A stretch of DNA of 64,000 nucleotides from Nitrosopumilus sp. (GCA_965205215.1 OZ242041.1:768001-832000); one strand, 5' to 3'. Shown: positions 6,730 to 33,378, counted from the stretch's first letter. Program-made: numbers and translations. The notes: a model not told the origin generated them from the sequence alone.

Positions 6730-7533
6730 TCATGCCTTGAGGTCCGGGTCCCTTTCGCCGTACGCGTCGGCGCGTCCGGACCTTGCGCGGATCTCCCTGA
6801 ACTTGCCGCGCCTGCCCGCCTTGTATATGACGTCGGGCCTCCTTGCAAAGATTCCGGACTCTGCGACCCCGGGTATGCGCCTTATGGCGCCAGTCAGCCT
6901 GCCGGGATCCCGTATGGTCCCAAAGCCGCAGTCCAGAATGATATTTCCGTTCTCGGTGAATACGGGATACCCAGAGTCCTGCACGCGCAGGACGGGCTCC
7001 CCTCCCATCTCCGCTATCCTTCTCTGGACCAGACGGCGGGCGAGCCTGTGCGCCTCCACCGGGACGGTCCTGGATATGTTCCTGACGAACTTTGTGGCAT
7101 CCGCCATTACTACCACCCTCTGCGCCATGTTGAACAGTATGTTCTCGCGCAGGAGGGCGCCCCCGCCCCCCTTTACCACGTATCCGCTGGCGTCTATCTG
7201 GTCCGCGCCGTCGTATACTATGTCGACCATGTCCGTCTGGTCCGCGCCTATGAGGGGTATCGCGTCACCCACCTCCTCCTCGATTACGAGCTTGATCTGA
7301 AGCGAGGTCGGGACGCCGATTACCCTGAGGCCTCTGTCCCTGACCAGCCCTGCAATCTCCCTTGCGACTGCCGTCGCGGCGCGGCCGCTGCCAAAGCCCA
7401 CCCTCGTGACGTCGTTTCTTGAGGCGGCGGTGCGCGTGACGTACTTTGTCGCATCCCTTGCCGCCGCCCTTACGGCGGCGCCGTATGCGGCCGACGACCT
7501 TGGCGCCATCTTATTCGGACTCCGCCCTGTCAA
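6730..7533 (-). CDS. rpiA: ribose-5-phosphate isomerase A
   Basis: GFGSG, DGADQID, KGGGGALLRE, TENGN motifs; start uncertain. Confidence 0.92.
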   Translation of the reverse strand: MTGRSPNKMAPRSSAAYGAAVRAAARDATKYVTRTAASRNDVTRVGFGSGRAATAVAREIAGLVRDRGLRVIGVPTSLQIKLVIEEEVGDAIPLIGADQTDMVDIVYDGADQIDASGYVVKGGGGALLRENILFNMAQRVVVMADATKFVRNISRTVPVEAHRLARRLVQRRIAEMGGEPVLRVQDSGYPVFTENGNIILDCGFGTIRDPGRLTGAIRRIPGVAESGIFARRPDVIYKAGRRGKFREIRARSGRADAYGERDPDLKA

Positions 7534-10946: not shown

Positions 10947-13900
10947 GTGAATACCGGAGCCAAATATGGCATTATCGGAGCTGCAATAGCGATTGCAATA
11001 GGCATAGCCGTTGCGGCATCGATGGGCGGAGACGGCGACGTGCCCGTTGAACCCCCCGTGGAGCCTGTGGTACCGGTGGAGCCCGAGGTGCCAGTTGAGC
11101 CCGTAGAACCCGAGGTACCCGTTGAAGAACCAGACGTGACAGAGGAAGAGCCCGGCGAGATCATGACCGTGGACGTGGGAGTACTTCTGCCCGCCACCGG
11201 CGACTTGGCAAGCCACGGCAACGAGAACAAGATTGCGCTGGAGTTTGCCGTGGAAGACTTTAACGAGTACCTAGAGGAGAAGGGCGCCGACTGGCGCATG
11301 AACCTGGTAGCCGAGGACACGCAGTCCAACCCGGTAGTCGCGCTTGAAAAGGTACAGTCCCTGAACTCAAAGGGGATAAAGTACGCGCTGGGCCCAGAGT
11401 CCAGTGCGGAGACCCGCAACATCATGTCGTATGCGGACTCCAATGATATGATTATACTCTCACCGTCATCCACGTCGCCAAAACTGGCCGTGGCCGACAA
11501 CATATTCAGGTTCGTCCCCGACGACACAAAGCAGGGCAAGGTGGTCGCCACGCTGCTTGCAGACAGCGGCATAAAGGTGGTGGTCCCGATATACCGCGGC
11601 GACGTGTGGGGCGACGGACTGTTCGAGTCAACCCAGGAGTCGTTCACGGAGATTGGCGGTGTAGTCGCAGAGGGAATACGCTACAACCCGGAGATAACGA
11701 CATTCTCCACCGAGGCCGAGGTGCTCTCAAACGCGGTGGAGGCGCAGCTTGCCAATTATGAGGCCGGCGAGGTCGGCGTATTCGTGATAGGCTTCGACGA
11801 GGTGGTCCACCTGTTCAACTCCGCCATAGAGTATGACACGCTCAACTCCGTGCCGTGGTTCGGCTCCGACGGCAACGCCGGCGCCGCCCCGCTCGTAGAG
11901 GACGCGCGCTCCGCCGAGTTTGCCACCAACACGGGATTCGTGGCGACGCAGTTTGCCGCATCCGACAACGAGGTCTCCGAGATGCTCAGGGCGGACTTTG
12001 TCGAACTGACCGGCTCGACGCCCAGCAACAACTACGTCTTCTCATCGTACGACAGCGTGTGGGTGCTGGGACTCTCCATGGAGGAGGTCGGCTTTGACTC
12101 ACTGGACATAAAGGAGCAGCTTCCGGCCACCGGCATGTCGTACACGGGCGCACTCGGGACGGTCCAGCTCAACGAGGCAGGCGACCTGGCCATATCAGAC
12201 TATGAGCTCTGGTCCGTCATTGAGGGCGAGTGGTTTGCCACTGCCAGGTACAATGCGGCCACCGGCGAGATCATGCAGAAGATGGACACCGGCGATGCGA
12301 TGATGGAGGACACAGAGGTCATGACCGTGGACGTGGGAGTACTTCTGCCCGCCACCGGCGACTTGGCAAGCCACGGCAACGAGAACAAGATTGCGCTGGA
12401 GTTTGCCGTGGAAGACTTTAACGAGTACCTAGAGGAGAAGGGCGCCGACTGGCGCATGAACCTGGTAGCCGAGGACACGCAGTCCAACCCGGTAGTCGCG
12501 CTTGAAAAGGTACAGTCCCTGAACTCAAAGGGGATAAAGTACGCGCTGGGCCCAGAGTCCAGTGCGGAGACCCGCAACATCATGTCGTATGCGGACTCCA
12601 ATGATATGATTATACTCTCACCGTCATCCACGTCGCCAAAACTGGCCGTGGCCGACAACATATTCAGGTTCGTCCCCGACGACACAAAGCAGGGCAAGGT
12701 GGTCGCCACGCTGCTTGCAGACAGCGGCATAAAGGTGGTGGTCCCGATATACCGCGGCGACGTGTGGGGCGACGGACTGTTCGAGTCAACCCAGGAGTCG
12801 TTCACGGAGATTGGCGGTGTAGTCGCAGAGGGAATACGCTACAACCCGGAGATAACGACATTCTCCACCGAGGCCGAGGTGCTCTCCAAGGCCGTCGACG
12901 CGCAGCTTGCCAATTATGAGGCCGGCGAGGTCGGCGTATTCGTGATAGGCTTCGACGAGGTGGTCCACCTGTTCAACTCCGCCATAGAGTATGACACGCT
13001 CAACTCCGTGCCGTGGTTCGGCTCCGACGGCAACGCCGGCGCCGCCCCGCTCGTAGAGGACGCGCGCTCCGCCGAGTTTGCCACCAACACGGGATTCGTG
13101 GCGACGCAGTTTGCCGCATCCGACAACGAGGTCTCCGAGATGCTCAGGGCGGACTTTGTCGAACTGACCGGCTCGACGCCCAGCAACAACTACGTCTTCT
13201 CATCGTACGACAGCGTGTGGGTGCTGGGACTCTCCATGGAGGAGGTCGGCTTTGACTCACTGGACATAAAGGAGCAGCTTCCGGCCACCGGCATGTCGTA
13301 CACGGGCGCACTCGGGACGGTCCAGCTCAACGAGGCAGGCGACCTGGCCATATCAGACTATGAGCTCTGGTCCGTCATTGAGGGCGAGTGGTTTGCCACT
13401 GCCAGGTACAATGCGGCCACCGGCGAGATCATGCAGAAGATGGACACCGGCGATGCGATGATGGAGGACACAGAGGTCATGACCGTGGACGTGGGAGTAC
13501 TTCTGCCCGCCACCGGCGACTTGGCAAGCCACGGCAACGAGAACAAGATTGCGCTGGAGTTTGCCGTGGAAGACTTTAACGAGTACCTAGAGGAGAAGGG
13601 CGCCGACTGGCGCATGAACCTGGTAGCCGAGGACACGCAGTCCAACCCGGTAGTCGCGCTTGAAAAGGTACAGTCCCTGAACTCAAAGGGGATAAAGTAC
13701 GCGCTGGGCCCAGAGTCCAGTGCGGAGACCCGCAACATCATGTCGTATGCGGACTCCAATGATATGATTATACTCTCACCGTCATCCACGTCGCCAAAAC
13801 TGGCCGTGGCCGACAACATATTCAGGTTCGTCCCCGACGACACAAAGCAGGGCAAGGTGGTCGCCACGCTGCTTGCAGACAGCGGCATAAAGGTGGTGGT

Positions 13901-15758
13901 CCCGATATACCGCGGCGACGTGTGGGGCGACGGACTGTTCGAGTCAACCCAGGAGTCGTTCACGGAGATTGGCGGTGTAGTCGCAGAGGGAATACGCTAC
14001 AACCCGGAGATAACGACATTCTCCACCGAGGCCGAGGTGCTCTCCAAGGCCGTCGACGCGCAGCTTGCCAATTATGAGGCCGGCGAGGTCGGCGTATTCG
14101 TGATAGGCTTCGACGAGGTGGTCCACCTGTTCAACTCCGCCATAGAGTATGACACGCTCAACTCCGTGCCGTGGTTCGGCTCCGACGGCAACGCCGGCGC
14201 CGCCCCGCTCGTAGAGGACGCGCGCTCCGCCGAGTTTGCCACCAACACGGGATTCGTGGCGACGCAGTTTGCCGCATCCGACAACGAGGTCTCCGAGATG
14301 CTCAGGGCGGACTTTGTCGAACTGACCGGCTCGACGCCCAGCAACAACTACGTCTTCTCATCGTACGACAGCGTGTGGGTGCTGGGACTCTCCATGGAGG
14401 AGGTCGGCTTTGACTCACTGGACATAAAGGAGCAGCTTCCGGCCACCGGCATGTCGTACACGGGCGCACTCGGGACGGTCCAGCTCAACGAGGCAGGCGA
14501 CCTGGCCATATCAGACTATGAGCTCTGGTCCGTCATTGAGGGCGAGTGGTTTGCCACTGCCAGGTACAATGCGGCCACCGGCGAGATCATGCAGAAGATG
14601 GACACCGGCGATGCGATGATGGAGGACACAGAGGTCATGACCGTGGACGTGGGAGTACTTCTGCCCGCCACCGGCGACTTGGCAAGCCACGGCAACGAGA
14701 ACAAGATTGCGCTGGAGTTTGCCGTGGAAGACTTTAACGAGTACCTAGAGGAGAAGGGCGCCGACTGGCGCATGAACCTGGTAGCCGAGGACACGCAGTC
14801 CAACCCGGTAGTCGCGCTTGAAAAGGTACAGTCCCTGAACTCAAAGGGGATAAAGTACGCGCTGGGCCCAGAGTCCAGTGCGGAGACCCGCAACATCATG
14901 TCGTATGCGGACTCCAATGATATGATTATACTCTCACCGTCATCCACGTCGCCAAAACTGGCCGTGGCCGACAACATATTCAGGTTCGTCCCCGACGACA
15001 CAAAGCAGGGCAAGGTGGTCGCCACGCTGCTTGCAGACAGCGGCATAAAGGTGGTGGTCCCGATATACCGCGGCGACGTGTGGGGCGACGGACTGTTCGA
15101 GTCAACCCAGGAGTCGTTCACGGAGATTGGCGGTGTAGTCGCAGAGGGAATACGCTACAACCCGGAGATAACGACATTCTCCACCGAGGCCGAGGTGCTC
15201 TCCAAGGCCGTCGACGCGCAGCTTGCCAATTATGAGGCCGGCGAGGTCGGCGTATTCGTGATAGGCTTCGACGAGGTGGTCCACCTGTTCAACTCCGCCA
15301 TAGAGTATGACACGCTCAACTCCGTGCCGTGGTTCGGCTCCGACGGCAACGCCGGCGCCGCCCCGCTCGTAGAGGACGCGCGCTCCGCCGAGTTTGCCAC
15401 CAACACGGGATTCGTGGCGACGCAGTTTGCCGCATCCGACAACGAGGTCTCCGAGATGCTCAGGGCGGACTTTGTCGAACTGACCGGCTCGACGCCCAGC
15501 AACAACTACGTCTTCTCATCGTACGACAGCGTGTGGGTGCTGGGACTCTCCATGGAGGAGGTCGGCTTTGACTCACTGGACATAAAGGAGCAGCTTCCGG
15601 CCACCGGCATGTCGTACACGGGCGCACTCGGGACGGTCCAGCTCAACGAGGCAGGCGACCTGGCCATATCAGACTATGAGCTCTGGTCCGTCATTGAGGG
15701 CGAGTGGTTTGCCACTGCCAGGTACAATGCGGCCACCGGCGAGATTATGAGTAAATGA
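10947..15758 (+). CDS. Liv-type ABC transporter substrate-binding protein with four tandem binding domains
   Basis: N-terminal TM anchor, PVE-rich stalk, 4x periplasmic-binding-protein type I domain (VGVLLPATGDLA...SPSSTSPKL...FRFVPDD...SYDSVW); first gene of the livGFHM operon. Confidence 0.9.
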   Translation: MNTGAKYGIIGAAIAIAIGIAVAASMGGDGDVPVEPPVEPVVPVEPEVPVEPVEPEVPVEEPDVTEEEPGEIMTVDVGVLLPATGDLASHGNENKIALEFAVEDFNEYLEEKGADWRMNLVAEDTQSNPVVALEKVQSLNSKGIKYALGPESSAETRNIMSYADSNDMIILSPSSTSPKLAVADNIFRFVPDDTKQGKVVATLLADSGIKVVVPIYRGDVWGDGLFESTQESFTEIGGVVAEGIRYNPEITTFSTEAEVLSNAVEAQLANYEAGEVGVFVIGFDEVVHLFNSAIEYDTLNSVPWFGSDGNAGAAPLVEDARSAEFATNTGFVATQFAASDNEVSEMLRADFVELTGSTPSNNYVFSSYDSVWVLGLSMEEVGFDSLDIKEQLPATGMSYTGALGTVQLNEAGDLAISDYELWSVIEGEWFATARYNAATGEIMQKMDTGDAMMEDTEVMTVDVGVLLPATGDLASHGNENKIALEFAVEDFNEYLEEKGADWRMNLVAEDTQSNPVVALEKVQSLNSKGIKYALGPESSAETRNIMSYADSNDMIILSPSSTSPKLAVADNIFRFVPDDTKQGKVVATLLADSGIKVVVPIYRGDVWGDGLFESTQESFTEIGGVVAEGIRYNPEITTFSTEAEVLSKAVDAQLANYEAGEVGVFVIGFDEVVHLFNSAIEYDTLNSVPWFGSDGNAGAAPLVEDARSAEFATNTGFVATQFAASDNEVSEMLRADFVELTGSTPSNNYVFSSYDSVWVLGLSMEEVGFDSLDIKEQLPATGMSYTGALGTVQLNEAGDLAISDYELWSVIEGEWFATARYNAATGEIMQKMDTGDAMMEDTEVMTVDVGVLLPATGDLASHGNENKIALEFAVEDFNEYLEEKGADWRMNLVAEDTQSNPVVALEKVQSLNSKGIKYALGPESSAETRNIMSYADSNDMIILSPSSTSPKLAVADNIFRFVPDDTKQGKVVATLLADSGIKVVVPIYRGDVWGDGLFESTQESFTEIGGVVAEGIRYNPEITTFSTEAEVLSKAVDAQLANYEAGEVGVFVIGFDEVVHLFNSAIEYDTLNSVPWFGSDGNAGAAPLVEDARSAEFATNTGFVATQFAASDNEVSEMLRADFVELTGSTPSNNYVFSSYDSVWVLGLSMEEVGFDSLDIKEQLPATGMSYTGALGTVQLNEAGDLAISDYELWSVIEGEWFATARYNAATGEIMQKMDTGDAMMEDTEVMTVDVGVLLPATGDLASHGNENKIALEFAVEDFNEYLEEKGADWRMNLVAEDTQSNPVVALEKVQSLNSKGIKYALGPESSAETRNIMSYADSNDMIILSPSSTSPKLAVADNIFRFVPDDTKQGKVVATLLADSGIKVVVPIYRGDVWGDGLFESTQESFTEIGGVVAEGIRYNPEITTFSTEAEVLSKAVDAQLANYEAGEVGVFVIGFDEVVHLFNSAIEYDTLNSVPWFGSDGNAGAAPLVEDARSAEFATNTGFVATQFAASDNEVSEMLRADFVELTGSTPSNNYVFSSYDSVWVLGLSMEEVGFDSLDIKEQLPATGMSYTGALGTVQLNEAGDLAISDYELWSVIEGEWFATARYNAATGEIMSK
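11163..15745 (+). repeat. four near-identical 1158-bp intragenic tandem repeats
   Basis: units start at about 11163, 12321, 13479 and 14637; shadow ORFs recur at exact 1158 offsets; the only internal difference I noticed is SNAVEA (copy 1) vs SKAVDA (copies 2-4). Confidence 0.95.
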
Positions 15759-24952: not shown

Positions 24953-26329
24953 CTACCTGCGATAGTCCACAATCTCGCCCGTGGCCGCGTCGTATCGGGC
25001 CGCGGGCGCCCACTTGCCGTCTGCAACTATCAGAAATTCATAGTCCGTGACGTCCAGGTCCCCCGCCTCGTTGAACATGACGTTCCCCAGAGCGCCGGTG
25101 CGCCCGGTGACGGTATCTGGAAGCTGTTCCATGATGTCCTGCACGTCAGGACCCGCCGCCTCAATTGCGAGGCCCAGCGCCCACAGGCTGTCATACGACG
25201 CGTAGATGTAGTTGTTGTTGGGGGTGGTGCCCGACCGCCTCTCAAACTCGTCCCTGACGTCCCTGAACACCTCATTGTCCGACGCCGAGAACTGCAGTGC
25301 CATTAGCCCGGTGCCCTCTGCAAACTTGGCCGCGCGCTCGTCGTCCACGATGGTGTGCGCCCCCGTGACCCCCTCAGAGCCGATCCACGGTATGCTTCGC
25401 AGGTTCTCGTACTCGACCGCGGCGTTGAACAGGTGCGACGCCTCGTCGAAACTGATGAGAAGGATGCCTACCTCGCCGCGCTCGTACGTGTCGTATAGCT
25501 GGGCCACCAGACTCGAGAGAGCGTGCATCTCCGAGGAGAACGTGGTTATCTCCGGGTTGTAGCGTATGCCTTCTGCCACGATGCCGCCCCTGTCCTCAAA
25601 CGCGGCCGCCGCCGTCTCAAACAGCCCGTCGCCCCATATGTCGCCGCGGTATACGGCTACTACGGCCTTGATGCCGCGGTCTTCTAGCAGCGCCGCTATC
25701 ACGGTGCCCTGCTTGCTGTCGTCGGGAACAAACCTGAATATGTTGTCGCCCGGGATTGCCAGCTTGGGCGATGTGGACGAGGGCGATATCAGCAGCATGT
25801 TGTTGGAGTTCACGTACGCCATGATGTTGCGGATCTCCGCGCTCGACGACGGCCCTAGTATGTACTTTATCCCCTTGGCGTCAAGCGACTGTACCTTTTC
25901 AAGGGCGGTGATCGGGTTGGTCTGTGTGTCTTCTGAAACAAGCCTCATGCGCCAGTCCGCCCCCTTGTCCTGCAGGTACTCATTGAAGTGATCCACTGCC
26001 ATGTCCAGACCGTACTTTGTGTCTATTCCATAGCTTGCCAGATCTCCGGTTACTGGGATCAATACTCCGACATCTATCATCCTTGTGTCTGATGACGCCG
26101 CGCTACTGTCTACGTCGGTGCCACCGTCACTCTCACCAGCATCCTCGCCTGCCGTCTCGTTGACATCGCCGGGCACCCCTGCATTTTCTGGCACCGTCGT
26201 GGCGGCATCCTCCGGCTGCATGCCGGCGTCCATGTCTGCGGGCCCGTCGGTTGGGGCCGAAACGGCCGTAGCTGCAATCCCTATTGCGATTGCGGCCCCG
26301 ATGATGCCATATATTGCGGCCTTATTCAA
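24953..26329 (-). CDS. Liv-type ABC substrate-binding protein, single domain (paralog of 10947..15758)
   Basis: same N-terminal anchor YGIIGAAIAI and a domain clearly homologous to the tandem unit. Confidence 0.9.
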   Translation of the reverse strand: MNKAAIYGIIGAAIAIGIAATAVSAPTDGPADMDAGMQPEDAATTVPENAGVPGDVNETAGEDAGESDGGTDVDSSAASSDTRMIDVGVLIPVTGDLASYGIDTKYGLDMAVDHFNEYLQDKGADWRMRLVSEDTQTNPITALEKVQSLDAKGIKYILGPSSSAEIRNIMAYVNSNNMLLISPSSTSPKLAIPGDNIFRFVPDDSKQGTVIAALLEDRGIKAVVAVYRGDIWGDGLFETAAAAFEDRGGIVAEGIRYNPEITTFSSEMHALSSLVAQLYDTYERGEVGILLISFDEASHLFNAAVEYENLRSIPWIGSEGVTGAHTIVDDERAAKFAEGTGLMALQFSASDNEVFRDVRDEFERRSGTTPNNNYIYASYDSLWALGLAIEAAGPDVQDIMEQLPDTVTGRTGALGNVMFNEAGDLDVTDYEFLIVADGKWAPAARYDAATGEIVDYRR

Positions 26330-26734
26330 TACGGATCTCTACAAGCAATCTTCTATAAGTCTTTTTAACTGATCAATTATAAAAATGATACGCGTTCACA
26401 CGCACTCCTCCCGAGCGGGATACGCAAGATATTTGTCATATGCGGCAATGTCAGTGCTCGCAAACCCACAAGGATGCGGGGTGCCAAGGGGGAAGCCGAC
26501 GGTGACGTCGTACTGTAGTTTCTGCCTCCGCATACCCTGTAGCAAACCCCGTCGAGACACTGGCGCGAGATCAGGCGCGCGGTTGCGGGAAGGCGCTGAG
26601 GACGGACTTGAACAGGCGCAGGCTTCCATCATGCGGATGCTGCGCAACGGCGAGGCTGCCGCTGCCAAGCTGTTCCGGTATGTGCATACGCGCCAAGTAA
26701 CGGCAGGCGCAGGACGCCGCTCCCTGTGCTCCAT

Positions 26735-26807
26735 GATATTAATAAATCTGATAATTTTTAATAATAACTATGAAACATTCTGAAATACTTAATAATATAT
26801 AAATAGT
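26735..26807 (+). promoter_or_regulatory. AT-rich promoter region with TATA box for the small-ORF/FeoB-like operon
   Basis: TATATAAA about 25-30 nt before ATG 26828; three TTAATAA words upstream. Confidence 0.55.
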
Positions 26808-26827
26808 GCCGGGCCGATACCAGTAGC

Positions 26828-27079
26828 ATGACCAAGACATTCCAAGTAAATCTTGAAGTTGAAGAGATCGGCAGGGCGCAGGACCGGATGCATAAAGTTC
26901 CAAATGTCTACGCCGGCATGGGAAGGGTGTACGGCGTTAGCGTGTCTGGGAGCAGCATACCTTTCCAGGCCTGGCTTTCCAAAATGGATGACGCGACCTT
27001 TGGGGACAGGGGGCAGAGGATTGACTGGCATCACGCCATGAGCGGGATCCCTCAGATTAAGAACGCATCATGCGGCTAG
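26828..27079 (+). CDS. small hypothetical protein, first gene of the FeoB-like operon
   Basis: 83 aa, correctly spaced TATA box, 29 nt from the next gene. Confidence 0.55.
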   Translation: MTKTFQVNLEVEEIGRAQDRMHKVPNVYAGMGRVYGVSVSGSSIPFQAWLSKMDDATFGDRGQRIDWHHAMSGIPQIKNASCG

Positions 27080-27108
27080 TCCGCGCTCCCACCCTTTTAT
27101 GATCTGCA

Positions 27109-28746
27109 ATGAACGTTCCCAGATTCATAGTAATTGGCAAGGAGGGAGTTGGAAAATCACAGCTAATCTCGTCGCTTACAGGAAAGGATGCAGGGGGCAG
27201 CAACATCAGGGGCTCTACGATCTCAAGTGAATCCTACAGCGGCAACAGGTTCGACTTTGTAGACACGCCGGGAATAGTTTTTGACTCTGACAGTGAAACG
27301 ACAAGGACTGCAATCGCGTCAATGCAGGGGGACGATTCCATACTGCTTGTCGTCCGTGCCACAAGCATGGATGAGGATCTCGAGTACCTCTTTTCATTGG
27401 TCAAGGCCAAAAAGGGGGCGATAATAGTGACGAATTGGGACAGGGTGGCGAATTCAAAGAATGTTGCCATAATTGAGCAGCTGGAGCGGGATCTGGGGAT
27501 GCCCGTAATTGCCCTCGACGCGCGGAGGATCACAGAGTTTCAAAAGAGCAGGATCGGCAAGACGCTAGAGAACCCCTGCACCTTTTCAAACAAGACGTTC
27601 CACACCGGAATCTCACTCAGGCCCAAGTCGACGGTCCTTGAAAAGAGGCACATGGGGATCGTAATCGGGATGGCATCGCTGCTGGCCCCTTCTATACTGT
27701 CAGTTGCAGGGGCCAATTACTTTGCAGGCCTCGTCCACCCCATAGTGGCAGATCTCATGGCAGGGCCGGTGGAGCGCCTGGAGGCACTGCTGTTGCCGCC
27801 TTTGCTGACGTACATCCTTGTCGGGGAATACGGGCTCTTTTCCATGGGCCCGTTCCTCTTTGTCTGGGCAGCGCCGACAATTACCATATACTCGCTGCTG
27901 CTCGGTGTCTACAAGTCGACAGGGCTGCTGGACCGCACGTCATTGGCAATTCATCCGCTGGTAAGAAGGATCGGGGTGAGTGGAAGGGACGTGACCAGAA
28001 TAGTGATGGGTTTTGGCTGCAACGTGCCTGCTGTAATCAGCAGCAGGTCCTGTTCAGGTTGCTCTAGGGGCACGACCGTCTCGGCAATAAGCTTCGGCTC
28101 TGCGTGTTCGTATCAGTTTGGTGCGACCATCGCGGTCTTGGCCGCGTCCGGCATGCCGTGGCTGGTGGTTCCGTTCCTGATTTACCTGGCCGGAACCACC
28201 GTTGTCTACTCCCGGCTGGTCAGTACAAGGAAGAACCGCTCCAAGCTTGGCATGCCGGTGATTGACGGCCAGGTGTTCTTTGAGAGGCCCACGTTCAGCT
28301 CCACTTGGAGGGAGTCAAGGCAGAGCATAACGCAGTTCTTCAGGACGGCACTCCCGATCTTTTTTGCGATCACGTTTGTCGCATCCCTCCTGAACTGGAC
28401 GGGCGTCATAGCCCTTCTTGCAGGGGAGCTTGGCCTCATAATGAGCCTGTTCAACCTGCCGGGGGACTCGGCGCTTGCAATAATGTTCGGCTCCATCCGG
28501 AAGGACGGGCTGCTGCTTCTTGCCGAACCCGGCATGGCGGACTCGCTTTCGGCGCTGCAGGTACTGACGGGCGTCTACCTGGCCGGGACGCTGCTGCCGT
28601 GCATCGTGACTTTCCTGACCATAGTGCGCGAGATGTCGTGGAAATTTGCAGTCAGGATGGCGGCAAAACAGATCATTGCAGCCGTCGCGTTTACGCTGCT
28701 GCTGGCGCATTCTGACAAACTCTGGAATGCCTTTCTTCAGATTTGA
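27109..28746 (+). CDS. FeoB-like GTPase plus Gate-domain membrane transporter (short, Cys-rich variant)
   Basis: GKEGVGKS, DTPG, TNWD G-motifs; GFGCNVPA gate motif; SCSGCS...ACSYQ; LLPC; multiple TMs. Confidence 0.85.
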   Translation: MNVPRFIVIGKEGVGKSQLISSLTGKDAGGSNIRGSTISSESYSGNRFDFVDTPGIVFDSDSETTRTAIASMQGDDSILLVVRATSMDEDLEYLFSLVKAKKGAIIVTNWDRVANSKNVAIIEQLERDLGMPVIALDARRITEFQKSRIGKTLENPCTFSNKTFHTGISLRPKSTVLEKRHMGIVIGMASLLAPSILSVAGANYFAGLVHPIVADLMAGPVERLEALLLPPLLTYILVGEYGLFSMGPFLFVWAAPTITIYSLLLGVYKSTGLLDRTSLAIHPLVRRIGVSGRDVTRIVMGFGCNVPAVISSRSCSGCSRGTTVSAISFGSACSYQFGATIAVLAASGMPWLVVPFLIYLAGTTVVYSRLVSTRKNRSKLGMPVIDGQVFFERPTFSSTWRESRQSITQFFRTALPIFFAITFVASLLNWTGVIALLAGELGLIMSLFNLPGDSALAIMFGSIRKDGLLLLAEPGMADSLSALQVLTGVYLAGTLLPCIVTFLTIVREMSWKFAVRMAAKQIIAAVAFTLLLAHSDKLWNAFLQI

Positions 28747-28776
28747 CCAAAACGGTCCACGGCCGGTCCAGCCATG

Positions 28777-29454
28777 TCATGGCGTGGCCCCGGCCTGGGT
28801 TTTTAGGATTTTTGCAAACTCCTCAGACAGTTTGCGCCACGCCTCATCCATGCGCTGGACCGGATCGGATGCATACTCGCTCTGCAGTGACTTGCTGCGG
28901 TATGACTGTCCGCACGTGGCATGCACCCAGTTTTCATAGCTTTCCAGCCACCTCATGGATTTAACGAGCATCTGCAGCATCCGCAGCGCCTCCTCCGCAG
29001 TTTTTGGCATTGTGCGTCGCGGAAGCTGGTCACAGCTCCACGTGTTGGGCAGGAGCGAGCTGACCCTGACGAATTTCGGTTCAAACTCGTGGCGCCACAA
29101 GAACAATCCGTCGTTTTTTGCAGAAAACATCATTCCAAAACCCCACAAAAGTACCTGCCCGTTCTGTGTAATGAGCGAATACTGGCTGCTTCCCATGTCC
29201 GGGTTTGGGGGCCTCTGTCTTGTAAAGCCGTACCGCAGCAGCAGGTTGTCTCCGTGCCGTATGTCTTGTCCCATGCAGTACAGCTGCTTTGTAAACAGTT
29301 TTTTCCACTTCTTCTGAAGGCGCTTGGGGACGCGCATCGTGTGGATGTGGGCCGACTTTCCCATTGTAGATCTCTGCGCGGTCATTTCAGATCTGCAACA
29401 AGTCAGTCCTTGGGACATGCGTCTTGGCCCCTGCCTCAGGCACCCCGCAGTCAT
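28777..29454 (-). CDS. hypothetical protein
   Basis: 225-aa ORF with globular-looking core (YCMGQDI..NLLLRYGF.R.RPP..GSSQY..LWGFG..WLESYE.W); start probably internal. Confidence 0.65.
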   Translation of the reverse strand: MTAGCLRQGPRRMSQGLTCCRSEMTAQRSTMGKSAHIHTMRVPKRLQKKWKKLFTKQLYCMGQDIRHGDNLLLRYGFTRQRPPNPDMGSSQYSLITQNGQVLLWGFGMMFSAKNDGLFLWRHEFEPKFVRVSSLLPNTWSCDQLPRRTMPKTAEEALRMLQMLVKSMRWLESYENWVHATCGQSYRSKSLQSEYASDPVQRMDEAWRKLSEEFAKILKTQAGATP

Positions 29455-29705
29455 TTCGTCCTGCAGGCCTCGGCCCTTTCTGGCATCCGAGATGCTGCCA
29501 GGCCTGCCTCAGGGCCCCCATCTCCCGACACCCCGCGCCCGCCCCCGGCTCAGTAATGTCTGCATTCCTTCCAGCCTCGATGTTACAACCTTCATGCTCC
29601 CAATACCCCCATGGCGCCTCTGTTTATTAAAATTTTGAACAATATTAATATTTTTTGATAAAAAAAATCCAAACATTAATAACATTATTGCCCAGACCGC
29701 AACTA

Positions 29706-30797
29706 GTGTTTGAAACAGTCGTGGTGGGTGCAGGACCGTCGGGAATAGGCGTGTCAATAATACTGAAAAAGTTGGGGATCAACTTTACAGTCCTGGAACG
29801 CAATGCCGTCGGCAGTTCCTTTCTCAAATGGCCAAAGCAGATGAAGCTGCTGACTCCCTCGTTCTTTAGCAACACCTTCAAGATGATAGATCTCAACGCA
29901 ATAACATACGACACCTCGCCTGCACTGACGCTGCAGACGGAGCATCCCAGCGGGCAGGAGTATGCGACATACCTAAAGAACCTCTCAAAGCACTTCAAGC
30001 TGCCAATCCGGACCGGCATCAATGTAAATTCGGTGCTAAAGACAGAGGGTGGATTTGTCCTGGACACCGACAAGGGGAAGATAGAGACCATATTTCTAAT
30101 CTGGGCGGCGGGGGAGTTCCAATACCCGAGGGACAACTCGTTTCCGGGTGCAGAGTACTGCATACACAACAGCCTGATTACCAACTGGGACGAGGTTAAG
30201 GGTGACGATTTTTTTGTCATAGGCGGTTATGAAAGCGGCATGGATACTGCGATTAATCTTGCAGAGCGCAACAAGCGGGTCACGATAATCGACACGAAGA
30301 ACCTGCTTGACAGTGATGAAATAGATCCCAGTAGGATAATATCCCCGTACACAAAGGACAGGCTGAGAAGGGTCAACTCTGCCGAGACGATAAAAATATT
30401 CATCGGGCGCGTGACCCAGGTGGCAAAAAAGCACGACGAGTTTGTAATTTCGACGGGGAAAACAAAGATCCGGTCAAAGACAAGGCCGATCCTTGCCACC
30501 GGTTTTACGGGAGGCCTCTCGCTGATCAAGGAGATGTTCCACTGGGAAGAGGAAAAGGCACTGTTGAATTCCTATGACGAGTCCACAAAAACCCCGGGCC
30601 TCTATGTGACGGGGCCGTTGCTACAGCAGCACAACACGATCTTCTGCTTTATCTACAAGTTTCAGCAGAGGTTTGCCGTGATTGCAAACCACATTGGGAT
30701 GAGGTTGAGCAAGGACGTGTCCGTAATCAACGAATACAAGAAGGAAGGCATGTACCTTGAGGATCTCAAAAGCGTCAAGGACAAATGCCAGTGCTAA
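29706..30797 (+). CDS. NAD(P)/FAD-dependent oxidoreductase (flavin monooxygenase-like)
   Basis: VVGAGPSG, WAAGEFQYP, IGGYESG, ILATGF, FCFIYKF, C-terminal KCQC; probable GTG start. Confidence 0.88.
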   Translation: MFETVVVGAGPSGIGVSIILKKLGINFTVLERNAVGSSFLKWPKQMKLLTPSFFSNTFKMIDLNAITYDTSPALTLQTEHPSGQEYATYLKNLSKHFKLPIRTGINVNSVLKTEGGFVLDTDKGKIETIFLIWAAGEFQYPRDNSFPGAEYCIHNSLITNWDEVKGDDFFVIGGYESGMDTAINLAERNKRVTIIDTKNLLDSDEIDPSRIISPYTKDRLRRVNSAETIKIFIGRVTQVAKKHDEFVISTGKTKIRSKTRPILATGFTGGLSLIKEMFHWEEEKALLNSYDESTKTPGLYVTGPLLQQHNTIFCFIYKFQQRFAVIANHIGMRLSKDVSVINEYKKEGMYLEDLKSVKDKCQC

Positions 30798-31019
30798 AAC
30801 CAAGAACTACCGGCCGTCACATGGACGGTAAGCCGTCCCGCTGGAATCGCATACATTAGCGGGACACGATATGCAAGTCCGGCGTGGAACTTGTCATCCC
30901 GGGTCGCAATGCCCTGTTGTAGCGGGCTAATCCATTTGCATTCTGCCCGCACTGGGATCCCGGCGCCCGCTGCATGCGGCACAACCCGGAAACTGCTTCC
31001 TTGGACTATGAATAGAAAA

Positions 31020-31093
31020 TGGACCGGAAGGGATTTGAACCCTCGATCCGATGCATGCCATGCACCTATCCTACCGGACTAGACGACCGGCCC
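31020..31093 (-). tRNA. tRNA-Ala(GGC)
   Basis: GGGCCGG...GGTGC ATGGCAT GCATC...GGTTCAAATCC...CCGGTCCA; G3:U70; CCA not encoded. Confidence 0.92.
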
Positions 31094-31311
31094 ACGGTCA
31101 GCAAAACTGACCATTCTTGCCACTTTTTAATCAATTATTAACGTTAGCACCTTATGCGGCCCTCGTTCACCGCTATTGTCGTAACTGCCTGCTTGGTCCC
31201 CCTACATCAGCCCGTCAGCGTGGTGAGGGCATCTCTACGCGTGACAAACGTCCTTGGAAAAACCAAAGCCGCTGAATTTGTAAAAAGCTGCCGCCCTCTC
31301 CCGTTACTCTT

Positions 31312-33378
31312 CTAGCGGCCGGCAGCCTCCGGGCACACCAGCTCCGGTATCCCTATCCCGCGCAGATACTCGTACGTCCTGTCGTAGTACCCGGGATCCC
31401 TGGTGCCGTCCCCGTCGTCTCCGGGCGGGACGAATATCACCATGCCCTGCCTTGCCCGCGTCAAAAGCACCCTGTACGCGTTCTTCAGGTACCTCTGCTT
31501 GTGGTCCTTGCGTATGTTGTTCCACCTGTCTCCTACAAACTCCTTGTAGTTCCACCCGTCCTCAGTATATCTGAGGTCCGCGTCCCATGCGACGCACGCC
31601 CAGTCAAGCTCCAGTCCTTGTATCTCGAATTCGGTCGCCACGTACTCCAGCCCGTTTGAGGAACGCGGGTCGTCCGGGGGGTTGAGGAACCAGTGGGTGG
31701 CCTTTGGCGTGAGCTCCACGTATATGCCGTGCGGCCTCAGCCGGTACGACTTTGCGGCCGCGACAATCCCGAACCGCTCCGTGCCCCGCGCCCTGCTCCG
31801 TAGCCACCTCTTTGCACGCCCAAAGTCCCTTGTCACCATGATGGGATACTTGTCTATGCCGGACAGCGTGACGCCCGCCGCTCCGGCGTCAAGGTCCAGA
31901 AGAAGCCTGACGAACTCCGACACGTGCCTGCTTCTAAACGACCTTATGGACGTGGCAAGGTGGAGCTCCGCGCGGTATCTGGGGCGTATGCCGCCGAGCA
32001 TGTCCTCGATCCGGCCGCGGCCGTCGTCGTAGTTCCTGCCCAAGTATTCCTCCCCGTTTATCTCCGGGGAGACGTACACGTCCCATCCGGGGTGGCTGCG
32101 CCTCACGGAGTCAAACCATTCTGGCAGGCCCGCCTCCCCGTGGTTGATCTCCTGCCCTCCCCCGACAAGGCAGACGAGCACCGCCCAGTCCGCGTGCCTA
32201 TCCATCGTATTGATCAAGTATTCCGGCTGCGACATGCCGATCTCCCTCCCCTTCCTCTTCTTCATGAACCTGTCAAGCTCCTTCCTGCTCCACGCGCGCT
32301 GCGCCTCGTCGAACACCACTACCCTTTCGTGCGGCGGGCGATCCGAGTCCATGGCCTCGGTGATGAACTCCCTGACGGGCTGTATGAGGGCCGCGGCCTC
32401 CCTGTACGCGCTGCTCTTCGTGACCCTGGCAAGGGTGGGATCCCTGGCGCGTTTGGAGCGCTCCCTGTCGAACTTGTCGCGCGCGAGCGCCTCGCGCAGG
32501 ACGTTTACGAGCGGGCCGTTGCCGGACAGAAAGACGGATCCGGTGTCATCATCGCCATCATCATCGTCGTAGTCGTGGGACGGCCAGTCACGGGGCTTTA
32601 CAGTCAGGTTCAACCCCACCAGGGTCTTGCCCGCCCCCGGTATGCCGGTCACAAAGCATATCGATTTTCTGCCGTTTTCTCTGGAGTGTTCTATCACGCC
32701 CTCGACTGCCGACTTGGTACTGGTGAGGTTCTCAGCTCCCGCCTCGGAGCGCGTTATGTCGCGCACGTCGTGGTTGTTGTACAGGGCGCGCGCGGCCTCG
32801 ATGATGGTCGGCGTGGGCTTGTATGCTGATCTCTCCCACTCGAGCGGGTCTATCGTAACCCCGCCGCCCTGGACCCCGGCCGCCCTGCGCATGATCTCGT
32901 GCAGGTTTGATCCGTTGGAGCACACGACCCCAAAGACCCCGTCCTCCCGCATGTCCAGGCCGTATGCAGCCGTCCCAGCCTCGCTGGCCACCAGAACGGG
33001 GAGTATGGGCTTGTCGTGGCTCCCCTCGTGGAAGTTCTTCAGGTCCACTGCATAGTCTGTGCACTGGTCCATGTCCGCCCGCCTGTACTGGCCTTCGCCG
33101 ATCTTGAACTCCAGCACGAACACCACGCCGCCGTAAATTATTACGGCGTCGGACCTCTTTCCCATGCGTGGGATGACAAACTCCAGGTAGACGTGGCCGC
33201 TGCCATCGCCGACATCCAGCCTGCGCAGCTCACGCGCCATTATGCCCAACTGGCCCTGCCACGCCCGCTTCTGCTCGTCTGTGGGGGGCATCTCGCTCCG
33301 GTCTGCCAGGACCGAGCGCACCTGCGCGGCATCAGTCCCCAAAAAGGACTCCAGACTGTCCGAATAGTACGCCCTCAC
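31312..33378 (-). CDS. DUF2075 / Schlafen group 3-like nuclease-helicase protein
   Basis: N-terminal PD-(D/E)xK-like segment (RSDAVI..LEFK), GIPGAGKT, FDEAQR, QGLELD, YRVLLTRAR. Confidence 0.85.
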   Translation of the reverse strand: MRAYYSDSLESFLGTDAAQVRSVLADRSEMPPTDEQKRAWQGQLGIMARELRRLDVGDGSGHVYLEFVIPRMGKRSDAVIIYGGVVFVLEFKIGEGQYRRADMDQCTDYAVDLKNFHEGSHDKPILPVLVASEAGTAAYGLDMREDGVFGVVCSNGSNLHEIMRRAAGVQGGGVTIDPLEWERSAYKPTPTIIEAARALYNNHDVRDITRSEAGAENLTSTKSAVEGVIEHSRENGRKSICFVTGIPGAGKTLVGLNLTVKPRDWPSHDYDDDDGDDDTGSVFLSGNGPLVNVLREALARDKFDRERSKRARDPTLARVTKSSAYREAAALIQPVREFITEAMDSDRPPHERVVVFDEAQRAWSRKELDRFMKKRKGREIGMSQPEYLINTMDRHADWAVLVCLVGGGQEINHGEAGLPEWFDSVRRSHPGWDVYVSPEINGEEYLGRNYDDGRGRIEDMLGGIRPRYRAELHLATSIRSFRSRHVSEFVRLLLDLDAGAAGVTLSGIDKYPIMVTRDFGRAKRWLRSRARGTERFGIVAAAKSYRLRPHGIYVELTPKATHWFLNPPDDPRSSNGLEYVATEFEIQGLELDWACVAWDADLRYTEDGWNYKEFVGDRWNNIRKDHKQRYLKNAYRVLLTRARQGMVIFVPPGDDGDGTRDPGYYDRTYEYLRGIGIPELVCPEAAGR

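Follow-up and report, generated by a model that had tools for sequence, protein, structure and literature searches.

A FeoB-like transporter and a flavoprotein as a candidate metal-uptake module of archaea, bacteria and plasmids

What does a short FeoB-like transporter do in an archaeon, encoded beside a flavin oxidoreductase in an AT-richer block of genes next to a tRNA-Ala gene? The block lies in a 64,000-nucleotide (nt) stretch of a Nitrosopumilus sp. genome (GCA_965205215.1, OZ242041.1:768001-832000), which is referred to below as the window, and it carries four open reading frames (ORFs) that encode a small protein (p83), the FeoB-like transporter, a further protein (p225) and the flavoprotein. 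The original prediction proposed that the four genes form an uncharacterised GTP-gated uptake system for a metal or a metal chelate, which is coupled to a flavoenzyme and was transferred into an archaeon. A GTP-gated metal-uptake system with a flavoenzyme is the best-supported reading in our analysis as well, owing to the co-occurrence of the genes and the separate clade of the transporter, with the function read from sequence. The core of the block appears to consist of two proteins, a FeoB-family permease and the flavoprotein, which we consider rather likely to constitute a metal-uptake module; zinc as the cargo is close to an even call. The pair is probably a metal-uptake system that has not been described before, and not an ordinary iron importer. 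We found no description of the pair as a system, or of a link between the pair and zinc, in the openly accessible literature, subscription journals lying outside the scope of the search. What appears to be new here is the placement of a FeoB-family transporter within a zinc-starvation regulon.

The transporter and the flavoprotein

The transporter matches the Pfam families FeoB_N (51.9 bits) and Gate (PF07670; 62 bits in two stretches), and gives no Pfam match to FeoB_C at E ≤ 0.01. Its matches in the PDB are limited to G-domain structures. The scores against two FeoB equivalog models fall far below the respective cut-offs (TIGR00437, 99.3 vs 315.65 bits; NF007105, the PRK09554 equivalog, 39.8 vs 683 bits). 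A search of 1.84 billion representative proteins retrieved 114 proteins at E ≤ 1e-30. The full-length members of this family comprise 520–590 amino acids (aa) and align in one stretch, whereas canonical FeoBs (~570–700 aa; 574–699 aa for 12 representatives) score only ~105–118 bits, in two stretches. In a FastTree phylogeny, 55 family representatives form one clade with a support of 1.0, apart from the 12 canonical sequences that served as the outgroup. Because the equivalog scores lie far below cut-off and the clade is separate, the transporter is classed as a FeoB relative that is distinct from canonical FeoB. The phylogeny had been suggested as a check along with the original prediction, and it places the protein outside canonical FeoB.

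The nucleotide-binding motifs of the transporter are intact (GKEGVGKS, T37, DTPG, T108-x-W-D111 and D137-A-R), and an alignment of 18 sequences shows that G10-K11-x3-G15-K16-S17, T37, D52-T53-x-G, T108-x-x-D111 and A138-R139 are invariant or nearly so. The cysteines are located in the motifs GFGC304NVPAV, RSC315SGC318SR, GSAC333SYQ and LPC498. C304 is a cysteine in all 55 family rows, C333 and C498 are each conserved in 54 of 55, and all three cysteines are present in 12/12 canonical rows. C333 and PC498 occupy the positions of Cys429 and Cys675 of Pseudomonas aeruginosa FeoB, two residues that were studied earlier, and a cysteine-lined, GTP-gated pore model has been proposed for FeoB (PMC4847171, in its accessible text). 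The motif R-x-C315-x-x-C318-[ST]-R, in contrast, is found in 47 of the 55 family representatives and in none of the 12 canonical sequences, which carry T-R-x-L-x4-E-R at this position. The dense cysteine cluster that had been noted in the transporter is thus present, although its GC-NVPA, ACS and PC cysteines are common to canonical FeoB and only the CxxC is special.

The transporter shares with canonical FeoB the N-terminal G domain with G1–G5, the two Gate motifs and the cysteines of GxGC, PCSxQ and PC. It differs in length (~545 aa, compared with 600–770 aa), in the missing Pfam FeoB_C match, in the R-x-C-x-x-C-[ST]-R motif, in its flavoprotein partner, in the lack of FeoA in the genome and in a genomic context of zinc rather than iron limitation. 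The genome that was searched is a single 2.10-Mb contig of a Nitrosopumilaceae member with a completeness of 95%. FeoA (PF04023) has no match in it, while the control search matched 12 of 14 genomes; a short FeoB-like protein without a FeoA partner, as originally described, is therefore confirmed. Many relatives of the transporter are labelled 'ferrous iron transport protein B' in the sources.

The flavoprotein matches Pyr_redox_3 of Pfam with 312.6 bits (gathering score 30), and its two dinucleotide-binding motifs, G25-A-G-x-x-G30 and G190-G-Y-E-S-G195, are invariant. It scores far below the cut-offs of three more specific models (YpdA, 101.8 vs 339.9 bits; ArsO, 59.6 vs 425; TRX_reduct, 32.3 vs 343.45). 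Four cysteines are invariant across 66 sequences: C169, C331, C378 and C380. In the window protein, C331 lies within F330-C-F-I-Y-K-F and the C-terminal end reads K-C378-Q-C380, so that the FCFIYKF motif and the KCQC tail of the original prediction are both borne out; bacterial members end in LSCCxxxCxC. No internal CxxC is found in the alignment. The closest solved structure is PDB 3D1C, which aligns over the full length including the Cys-rich tail (214 bits). This structural-genomics entry, a 'flavin-containing putative monooxygenase', contains an LCYIYKF motif and a CCEVSCTC C-terminus, and carries no assigned function.

Two groups of characterized flavoproteins are comparable. The bacillithiol-disulfide reductase YpdA/Bdr and thioredoxin reductase belong to the same superfamily with two dinucleotide-binding motifs, which makes thiol/disulfide chemistry plausible for the present protein; it differs from them in its score below the YpdA cut-off, in the absence of the internal CxxC of the thioredoxin-reductase type, and in its own invariant cysteines and tail. 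The second is CzcO, a COG2072 flavoprotein of the same broad class that is encoded together with the cation-diffusion facilitator CzcD in Bacillus subtilis. CzcO reportedly enhances the Zn/Co/Cd transporter CzcD by a mechanism that is not known, and the difference from the pair described here is that CzcD is an efflux transporter of another family.

Co-occurrence and zinc-limitation context

A scan of prokaryotic genomes, with one genome per species, yielded 513 pattern matches, 476 of which encode a relative of the transporter, and the best 80 loci were analysed. The flavoprotein gene is present within 70 of these 80 genome loci. It lies upstream on the same strand in 57 of the 70, where, with two exceptions, the gap is <400 nt. 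Of the ten loci without it, six are truncated by a contig end on the relevant side. Among 200 other Nitrosopumilaceae genomes, the transporter occurs in five (4 of 27 genera; 0 of 16 genomes of the same genus) and the flavoprotein occurs in exactly the same five. Likewise, a sample of 201 cyanobacterial genomes, drawn from the phylum of a Crocosphaera genome, contains both genes in the same three. Plasmid records gave 531 matches to the transporter (E ≤ 1e-30) and 538 to the flavoprotein (E ≤ 1e-40). The counts per genus are nearly the same for the two proteins, among them Klebsiella (498 and 497, respectively), Escherichia (20 each) and Haloferax, Halocatena and Staphylococcus (2 each), with Enterococcus (0 and 6) as the outlier. 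The flavoprotein and the transporter are a near-obligate pair across two domains of life and plasmids. The gene-neighbourhood comparison that had been suggested for the four genes thus shows very strong co-occurrence elsewhere for these two.

Six Enterococcus plasmids match the flavoprotein (42% identity in the row listed), and Enterococcus is not among the named genera with the transporter. These plasmids are the one place seen where the flavoprotein may occur without it. A structure prediction for a complex of the transporter and the flavoprotein returned a score of 0.02 with the verdict 'no answer', which weighs neither way.

Up to a distance of 5 kb from the transporter gene, the following genes recur in the 80 loci: hisI (22 loci), COG0523 (20, including the thaumarchaeal loci L006 and L014), an SSUL-domain protein resembling γ-carbonic anhydrase (16), a WD40 protein (11), thrS (8), cysS (8), an ABC ATPase (8), an ABC-3 permease (6) and PEP-CTERM proteins (6). 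HisI, CysRS, ThrRS, γ-carbonic anhydrase, DksA paralogues, COG0523 and FolE2 are predicted members of Zur regulons, and the cluster of the Klebsiella plasmid pLVPK is marked as Zur-regulated, in the accessible text of Haas et al. (2009; PMC2770081). The gene order on an annotated Klebsiella pneumoniae plasmid is carbonate dehydratase, folE2, dksA, COG0523 GTP-binding protein, repressor, flavoprotein, FeoB-like transporter, zigA, hisI and repressor. On the Haloferax gibbonsii plasmid pHG2, a NikR-like regulator is followed by COG0523, the flavoprotein, a paralogue of ribosomal protein S14 (rpS14), the FeoB-like transporter, hisI and a metal ABC binding protein. The S14 paralogue, annotated as 30S ribosomal protein S14, is encoded at 6742-6927 of that plasmid locus (L094), between the flavoprotein and FeoB-like genes. 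Zinc-free paralogues of ribosomal proteins are a hallmark of bacterial zinc-starvation regulons. Within Thaumarchaeota, clustering of the zinc type is found only in L006 and L014 (COG0523 and WD40) and in L004, L005 and L011 (ABC-3 and NikR-like), and not in the window.

The promoters of the bacterial loci also carry a recognizable box. The 15-bp palindrome TGATAATNATTATCA was queried with up to two mismatches allowed, and it is identical to an Anabaena Zur-binding site listed in S3 Table of PMC10957091. The loci (1.03 Mb) contain 167 occurrences, compared with 3–15 in 20 shuffles. The 66 non-thaumarchaeal loci contain 149 of them, compared with a median of 3 when 40 palindromes of matched composition were counted; the one high control palindrome (122) represents the same site in a shifted register. 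A Zur-type box is located at the start of the flavoprotein gene in 42 of 54 testable bacterial loci. Several of the other 12 loci have a box at a greater distance upstream, which either precedes thrS or is shared with a divergently oriented COG0523 gene, and Zur-type boxes also precede the COG0523, hisI, thrS and γ-carbonic-anhydrase genes in the same loci. The neighbours and the boxes together assign the bacterial pair to the zinc-limitation (Zur) response. A regulon search in homologous loci had been suggested originally, and its result narrows the proposed metal uptake to zinc limitation.

The bacterial orthologues of the pair are thus found inside known Zur-regulated zinc-starvation clusters and behind Zur-type boxes, including the cluster of the pLVPK type on Klebsiella plasmids (PMC2770081). 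The accessible text of that source, in contrast, mentions neither protein of the pair. The word 'FeoB' does not occur in it, and 'ferrous' and 'oxidoreductase' occur once each, in the title of a reference and in a general Background remark, respectively.

Two further protein families are seen at these loci. A WD40-repeat protein of ~350 aa (cluster c13) accompanies COG0523 in L006, L014 and nine cyanobacterial loci. PEP-CTERM proteins with Zur-type box promoters adjoin hisI near the pair in L077 (3230-3997) and five other cyanobacterial loci (cluster c28). The zinc-acquisition exoprotein ZepA is associated with PEP-CTERM proteins (PMC10957091, in its accessible text), and those near the pair may be relatives of ZepA.

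Proposed mechanism, archaeal control and alternatives

Because the bacterial pair appears to belong to the Zur response, the cargo is most likely Zn2+, or else a thiophilic substitute for it (Co2+ or Cd2+, for example), which would be imported under zinc scarcity. In the mechanism that we propose, the cytoplasmic GTPase domain would gate a membrane pore lined by the three canonical FeoB cysteines and the family-specific CxxC. The flavoprotein, a putative cytoplasmic NAD(P)H- and FAD-dependent enzyme with a Cys-rich tail (CxC here, CCxxxCxC in bacteria), would service the thiolate chemistry of the transporter. It might keep the cysteine cluster reduced in these aerobic organisms, or its cysteine tail might take the metal from the pore exit, in the manner in which the C-terminal cysteines of mercuric reductase take metal. 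In Thaumarchaeota, p83 and p225 travel with the pair. That transport is inward, which metal is carried, what the flavoprotein does and that NikR exerts control are all inferred from sequence comparisons.

A bolder version, which we consider speculative and on balance unlikely, is a redox-driven zinc pump in which the flavoprotein powers the transporter through NAD(P)H-dependent redox cycling of the CxxC, with the cysteine tail acting as a shuttle. A tetrathiolate state would capture Zn2+ and a disulfide state would release it, and GTP binding would serve as the gate only. As a corollary, a NikR-family regulator acting on the element TATTAATAA-N9-13-TTAATAATA would play the part of Zur in Archaea without Zur. 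To our knowledge, redox-driven pumping is not known for any metal importer.

Control in the archaeon may indeed involve a regulator of this family. The genome of the Nitrosopumilus sp. encodes one NikR-like protein, whose gene is 3 kb from the single ABC-3 permease gene. A NikR-like gene (NikR_C/RHH) adjoins the module in L004, L010 and L011 and shares a locus with it in L005; Haloferax pHG2 carries one as well. The AT-rich promoter architecture upstream of p83 is conserved in L003, L006 and L014, and is kept despite the 60%-GC genome. A bipartite pattern of the type TATTAATAA-N13-TTAATAATAA has two hits in the genome, in the p83 promoter and in the promoter of the NikR-like gene (C1:265221-265248). 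L004 and L011 carry the element again, between their divergent p83 and NikR genes, and L010 has a variant of it in this place. The general form of this bipartite AT-rich element is TATTAATAA-N9-13-TTAATAATA(A). These observations provide a lead: a NikR-family regulator, and not Zur, probably controls the module in Thaumarchaeota, and the bipartite element may serve as the operator for a metal sensor of the NikR family that takes the place of Zur in archaea. The genome also contains two hits to the COG0523/cobW family (ORFs of 237 and 437 aa), neither of which is near the block.

Several points weigh against the assignment of the pair to zinc import. The weakest mechanistic link is that zinc is redox-inert, which leaves an NAD(P)H-dependent flavoprotein without an obvious job in zinc import. 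The homology to FeoB and the common cysteines would fit Fe2+ equally well. Zur and Fur boxes look alike, and Fur may bind at the boxes described above. In the window, the block is directly flanked by genes for solute-binding proteins and for a Schlafen-like helicase, with no metal genes in a Pfam scan, and the genome shows no match above cut-off to the Fur/Zur family, so that the zinc link for this archaeon rests on its relatives. NikR is best known for nickel sensing, and the bipartite pattern was derived post hoc from its two genome sites. The flavoprotein gene is lacking in four loci with full flanks (L045, L056, L064 and L068). Finally, 52 of the 80 loci are cyanobacterial and 13 are thaumarchaeal (by the labels of 78 tree rows); related loci are not independent, and the counts therefore overstate the number of independent observations.

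In two of the four loci without the flavoprotein, L045 (9643-10743) and L056 (6857-7915), both from Acidobacteriota, the FeoB-like gene is adjoined by a gene for a Shikimate_DH-like NAD(P)-binding protein of the Rossmann type (~350–366 aa). This protein may substitute for the usual redox partner without being its orthologue, and the presence of a different NAD(P)-binding neighbour would fit a need for such a partner.

The alternative that survives best, although we regard it as unlikely, is that the cargo is another thiophilic metal (Ni2+, Co2+ or Cu+), at least in archaea. It draws on the NikR-like genes beside the module and on the promoter element that the module has in common with the NikR-like gene. 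COG0523 also includes cobalt chaperones (PMC2770081, in its accessible text), a tetrathiolate-like pore would suit soft metals generally, and the archaeal cells need nickel for urease, cobalt for cobalamin and much copper. However, the same archaeal clusters hold hisI, the rpS14 paralogue, COG0523 and ABC-3 permeases of the Znu/Tro type, which are hallmarks of a zinc response. The bacterial orthologues stand behind Zur boxes, and genes for urease, cobalamin or copper are not recurrent in the 80 loci.

An ordinary ferrous-iron importer is distinctly unlikely. The transporter would then be a true FeoB, the flavoprotein a ferric or flavin reductase that supplies Fe2+, and the palindromes Fur boxes. 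The FeoB_N and Gate domains, the three canonical cysteines and the annotation of many relatives agree with such a role, and a redox-active cargo would account for the reductase. Shafiee et al. (2019) treat T478_0963 of Nitrosopelagicus brevis as an Fe2+-specific FeoB (PMC6776035, in its accessible text), where we assume that T478_0963 is a member of the present family. The equivalog scores, the separate clade and the lack of FeoA in the genome argue against it. Moreover, the neighbours of the pair are zinc-paralogue and COG0523/ZigA genes rather than iron genes, the box is identical to listed Anabaena Zur sites (PMC10957091, in its accessible text), and a cytoplasmic reductase cannot provide Fe2+ at the outer face of an importer.

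Very unlikely, in our view, is a third alternative, in which the flavoprotein would be a monooxygenase that makes or modifies a metal-binding small molecule and the Gate permease would move this molecule or its metal complex. PDB 3D1C was deposited as a 'putative monooxygenase', Pyr_redox_3 includes flavin monooxygenases, and F163-x-G-x-x-x-C-x-H of the flavoprotein resembles the signature of flavin monooxygenases. Pfam, in addition, calls the Gate domain 'nucleoside recognition'. On the other side, no biosynthetic genes of the non-ribosomal peptide synthetase, opine or nicotianamine type recur beside the pair in the 80 loci, and the invariant Cys-rich tail and the extra CxxC of the pore point to direct thiolate-metal chemistry.

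A chance assembly of four unrelated genes in a stretch of unusual composition, as the window flanks without metal genes and the opposite strand of the third gene might suggest, can be dismissed, given that the genes co-occur across two domains of life and plasmids, that all four are kept through rearrangement within Thaumarchaeota, and that the co-occurrence data refute a chance neighbourhood for the pair.

If the assignment of the pair to zinc-limited metal uptake is correct, a widespread module has been overlooked on account of its annotation, in which the transporter is called 'FeoB' or 'nucleoside recognition domain protein' and its partner a generic oxidoreductase. Its extent would include the 476 confirmed hits in the one-per-species prokaryotic genomes and ~500 Klebsiella plasmids of the virulence-plasmid type. 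It would also correct a premise of marine biogeochemistry, namely that the 'FeoB' of Nitrosopelagicus represents Fe2+-specific uptake in ammonia-oxidising archaea (PMC6776035, in its accessible text). A mechanistic puzzle would follow, which is why a transporter linked to redox-inert zinc should always depend on a cysteine-tailed NAD(P)H flavoprotein. The module would further offer a handle on the sensing of metal scarcity in Archaea without Zur, with the NikR-family regulator as the candidate sensor.

Layout, accessory genes and history of the block

The four ORFs and the tRNA-Ala(GGC) gene are all present as originally described, with p225 on the opposite strand (Table 1). The GC content in 500-nt windows is 0.49–0.58 in the block and 0.60–0.68 in the flanks. 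The whole block has a GC content of 0.531 against a genome mean of 0.603, which ranks it at the 5.7th percentile when 4188 windows of this size (4.4 kb) are compared, and GC3 is 0.65–0.69 for the block genes compared with 0.71–0.86 for the neighbouring genes. The AT-richer composition that had been reported is real but modest. A search for sequencing runs that contain this DNA listed six from three studies, none of them RNA.

Table 1. Coordinates of the block and its borders in the window.
Feature	Position	Strand	Remark
Left border and promoter region of the p83/transporter operon	26717..26827	+	AT-rich; high-identity homology to L001 and L002 begins at 26717
Bipartite element TATTAATAA-N13-TTAATAATAA	26737-26767		within the left-border promoter region
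p83 ORF	26828-27079	+	83 aa
FeoB-like transporter ORF	27109-28746	+	545 aa; start 30 nt downstream of p83
p225 ORF	28777-29454	-	225 aa; convergent with the transporter gene
p225, likely start at 29385	28777-29385	-	202 aa; based on the call in a 97%-identical relative
Flavoprotein ORF	29655-30797	+	380 aa; divergent from p225
Spacer between the flavoprotein gene and the tRNA gene	30798..31018	.	contains the right block border, ~30882-30900
tRNA-Ala(GGC)	31019-31094	-	ARAGORN; 3´ end toward the block

The two accessory genes are much narrower in distribution than the pair. A profile HMM applied to 94 loci detects p83 in 13 thaumarchaeal loci and in the window copy, and nowhere else; L003 carries a remnant of it. 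p225 occurs in 16 of the 94 loci (13 thaumarchaeal, two Planctomycetota and one Chloroflexota). The suggestion of a four-gene system hence fails as a general description, since only the flavoprotein and the transporter are universal. In Thaumarchaeota, all four genes are retained in different arrangements: the order in the window is p83 (+), transporter (+), p225 (-) and flavoprotein (+), and the order in Nitrosopelagicus is flavoprotein (-), p225 (+), transporter (+) and p83 (-).

p83 has no match to a Pfam or NCBIfam family. Its structural model (pLDDT 78) has a predicted ferredoxin-like β-α-β-β-α-β fold, and the PDB matches are generic ferredoxin-like, ACT or PII-like folds at E ~3e-3 or weaker. 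A role of p83 as a FeoA analogue was considered and rejected, as the modelled fold is ferredoxin-like and not SH3-like. The SCG end that had been noted for this protein is present, but the terminal cysteine is not invariant, with phenylalanine in 2 of 8 aligned relatives.

p225 likewise matches no Pfam or NCBIfam family. Its family is an orphan one, with 107 clusters that are each named hypothetical and lack a Pfam hit. The few named members come from Nitrososphaeraceae, from Planctomycetota (Pirellulales among them) and from one gammaproteobacterial bin, and TARA ocean sequences are represented as well. A C-terminal C4 zinc ribbon, CGxCG...CPSCxW, is present in 7 of 8 thaumarchaeal p225 rows, with only the window copy lacking it. 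The model (pLDDT 84) is predicted to belong to an α/β family. Foldseek found no PDB match to the p225 fold at E ≤ 0.001, VIA-align gave generic helical matches with a best Z of 7.2, which is within the stated background of the tool, and the ESM Atlas yielded no usable match.

A gene for a 57-aa basic protein is located between the flavoprotein and p225 genes in L005 (6951-7124), L003 (10491-10661, minus strand) and L006 (10433-10603, minus strand). The genome of the Nitrosopumilus sp. contains a 72%-identical copy at C1:201492-201662 and none in the block.

The nearest public relatives, L001 and L002, carry the same block. From 26717 to ~30900, the identity of the block is 98.1% to L001 and 97.4% to L002, compared with 90–94% for the flanks. 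At four-fold sites, the comparison with L001 gives a divergence of 13/580 for the block and 90/903 for the flanks (Fisher p = 2e-9), and that with L002 gives 17/577 and 46/435, respectively (Fisher p = 1e-6). The synonymous divergence of the block is therefore 3- to 5-fold below that of the flanks, which indicates that the difference is not purely due to purifying selection on the proteins. In L001, a 1.39-kb insertion (11808-13199) separates the flavoprotein gene from tRNA-Ala, and positions 30882-30900 of the window match both sides of it. In L002, the homology stops within a 24-nt sequence (11920-11945) that is a degenerate duplicate of the 3´ end of the tRNA, and unrelated DNA follows; tRNA-Ala is present in L001 and was not called in L002. 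The block is a rare accessory island beside tRNA-Ala, with a history distinct from that of its flanks.

A classic tRNA-integrating element was considered and rejected: the Pfam scan shows no integrase among the four ORFs, and the left border contains no att-like repeat of the tRNA 3´ end. An empty site could not be identified in genomes of the same genus by means of the flanking solute-binding protein, which is multi-copy and whose nearest outside hit is 50% identical. The 13 thaumarchaeal copies and the window copy form one clade (99% SH-aLRT) in a quick IQ-TREE tree, which does not resolve the branch order of Thaumarchaeota, Haloferax, Chloroflexota and bacteria and hence gives neither the direction nor the donor of a transfer. 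The transfer into an archaeon that had been proposed is plausible in view of the rare, accessory character of the block.

Two other features of the surroundings were observed. Upstream of the block, a 1623-aa open frame at 10950-15749 of the window contains four tandem copies of a periplasmic-binding-protein domain, which are 57–60% identical to the 458-aa binding protein encoded at 24953-26329, and the genome, like some others of the same genus, encodes a strongly expanded set of proteins of this family. Just past tRNA-Ala, the minus strand encodes a 688-aa protein (31312-33378) with a Schlafen group-3 helicase domain (PF09848, 251 bits). The gene is present in L001 with 94% DNA identity and has no match in L002, which adds to the picture of a variable region at tRNA-Ala.

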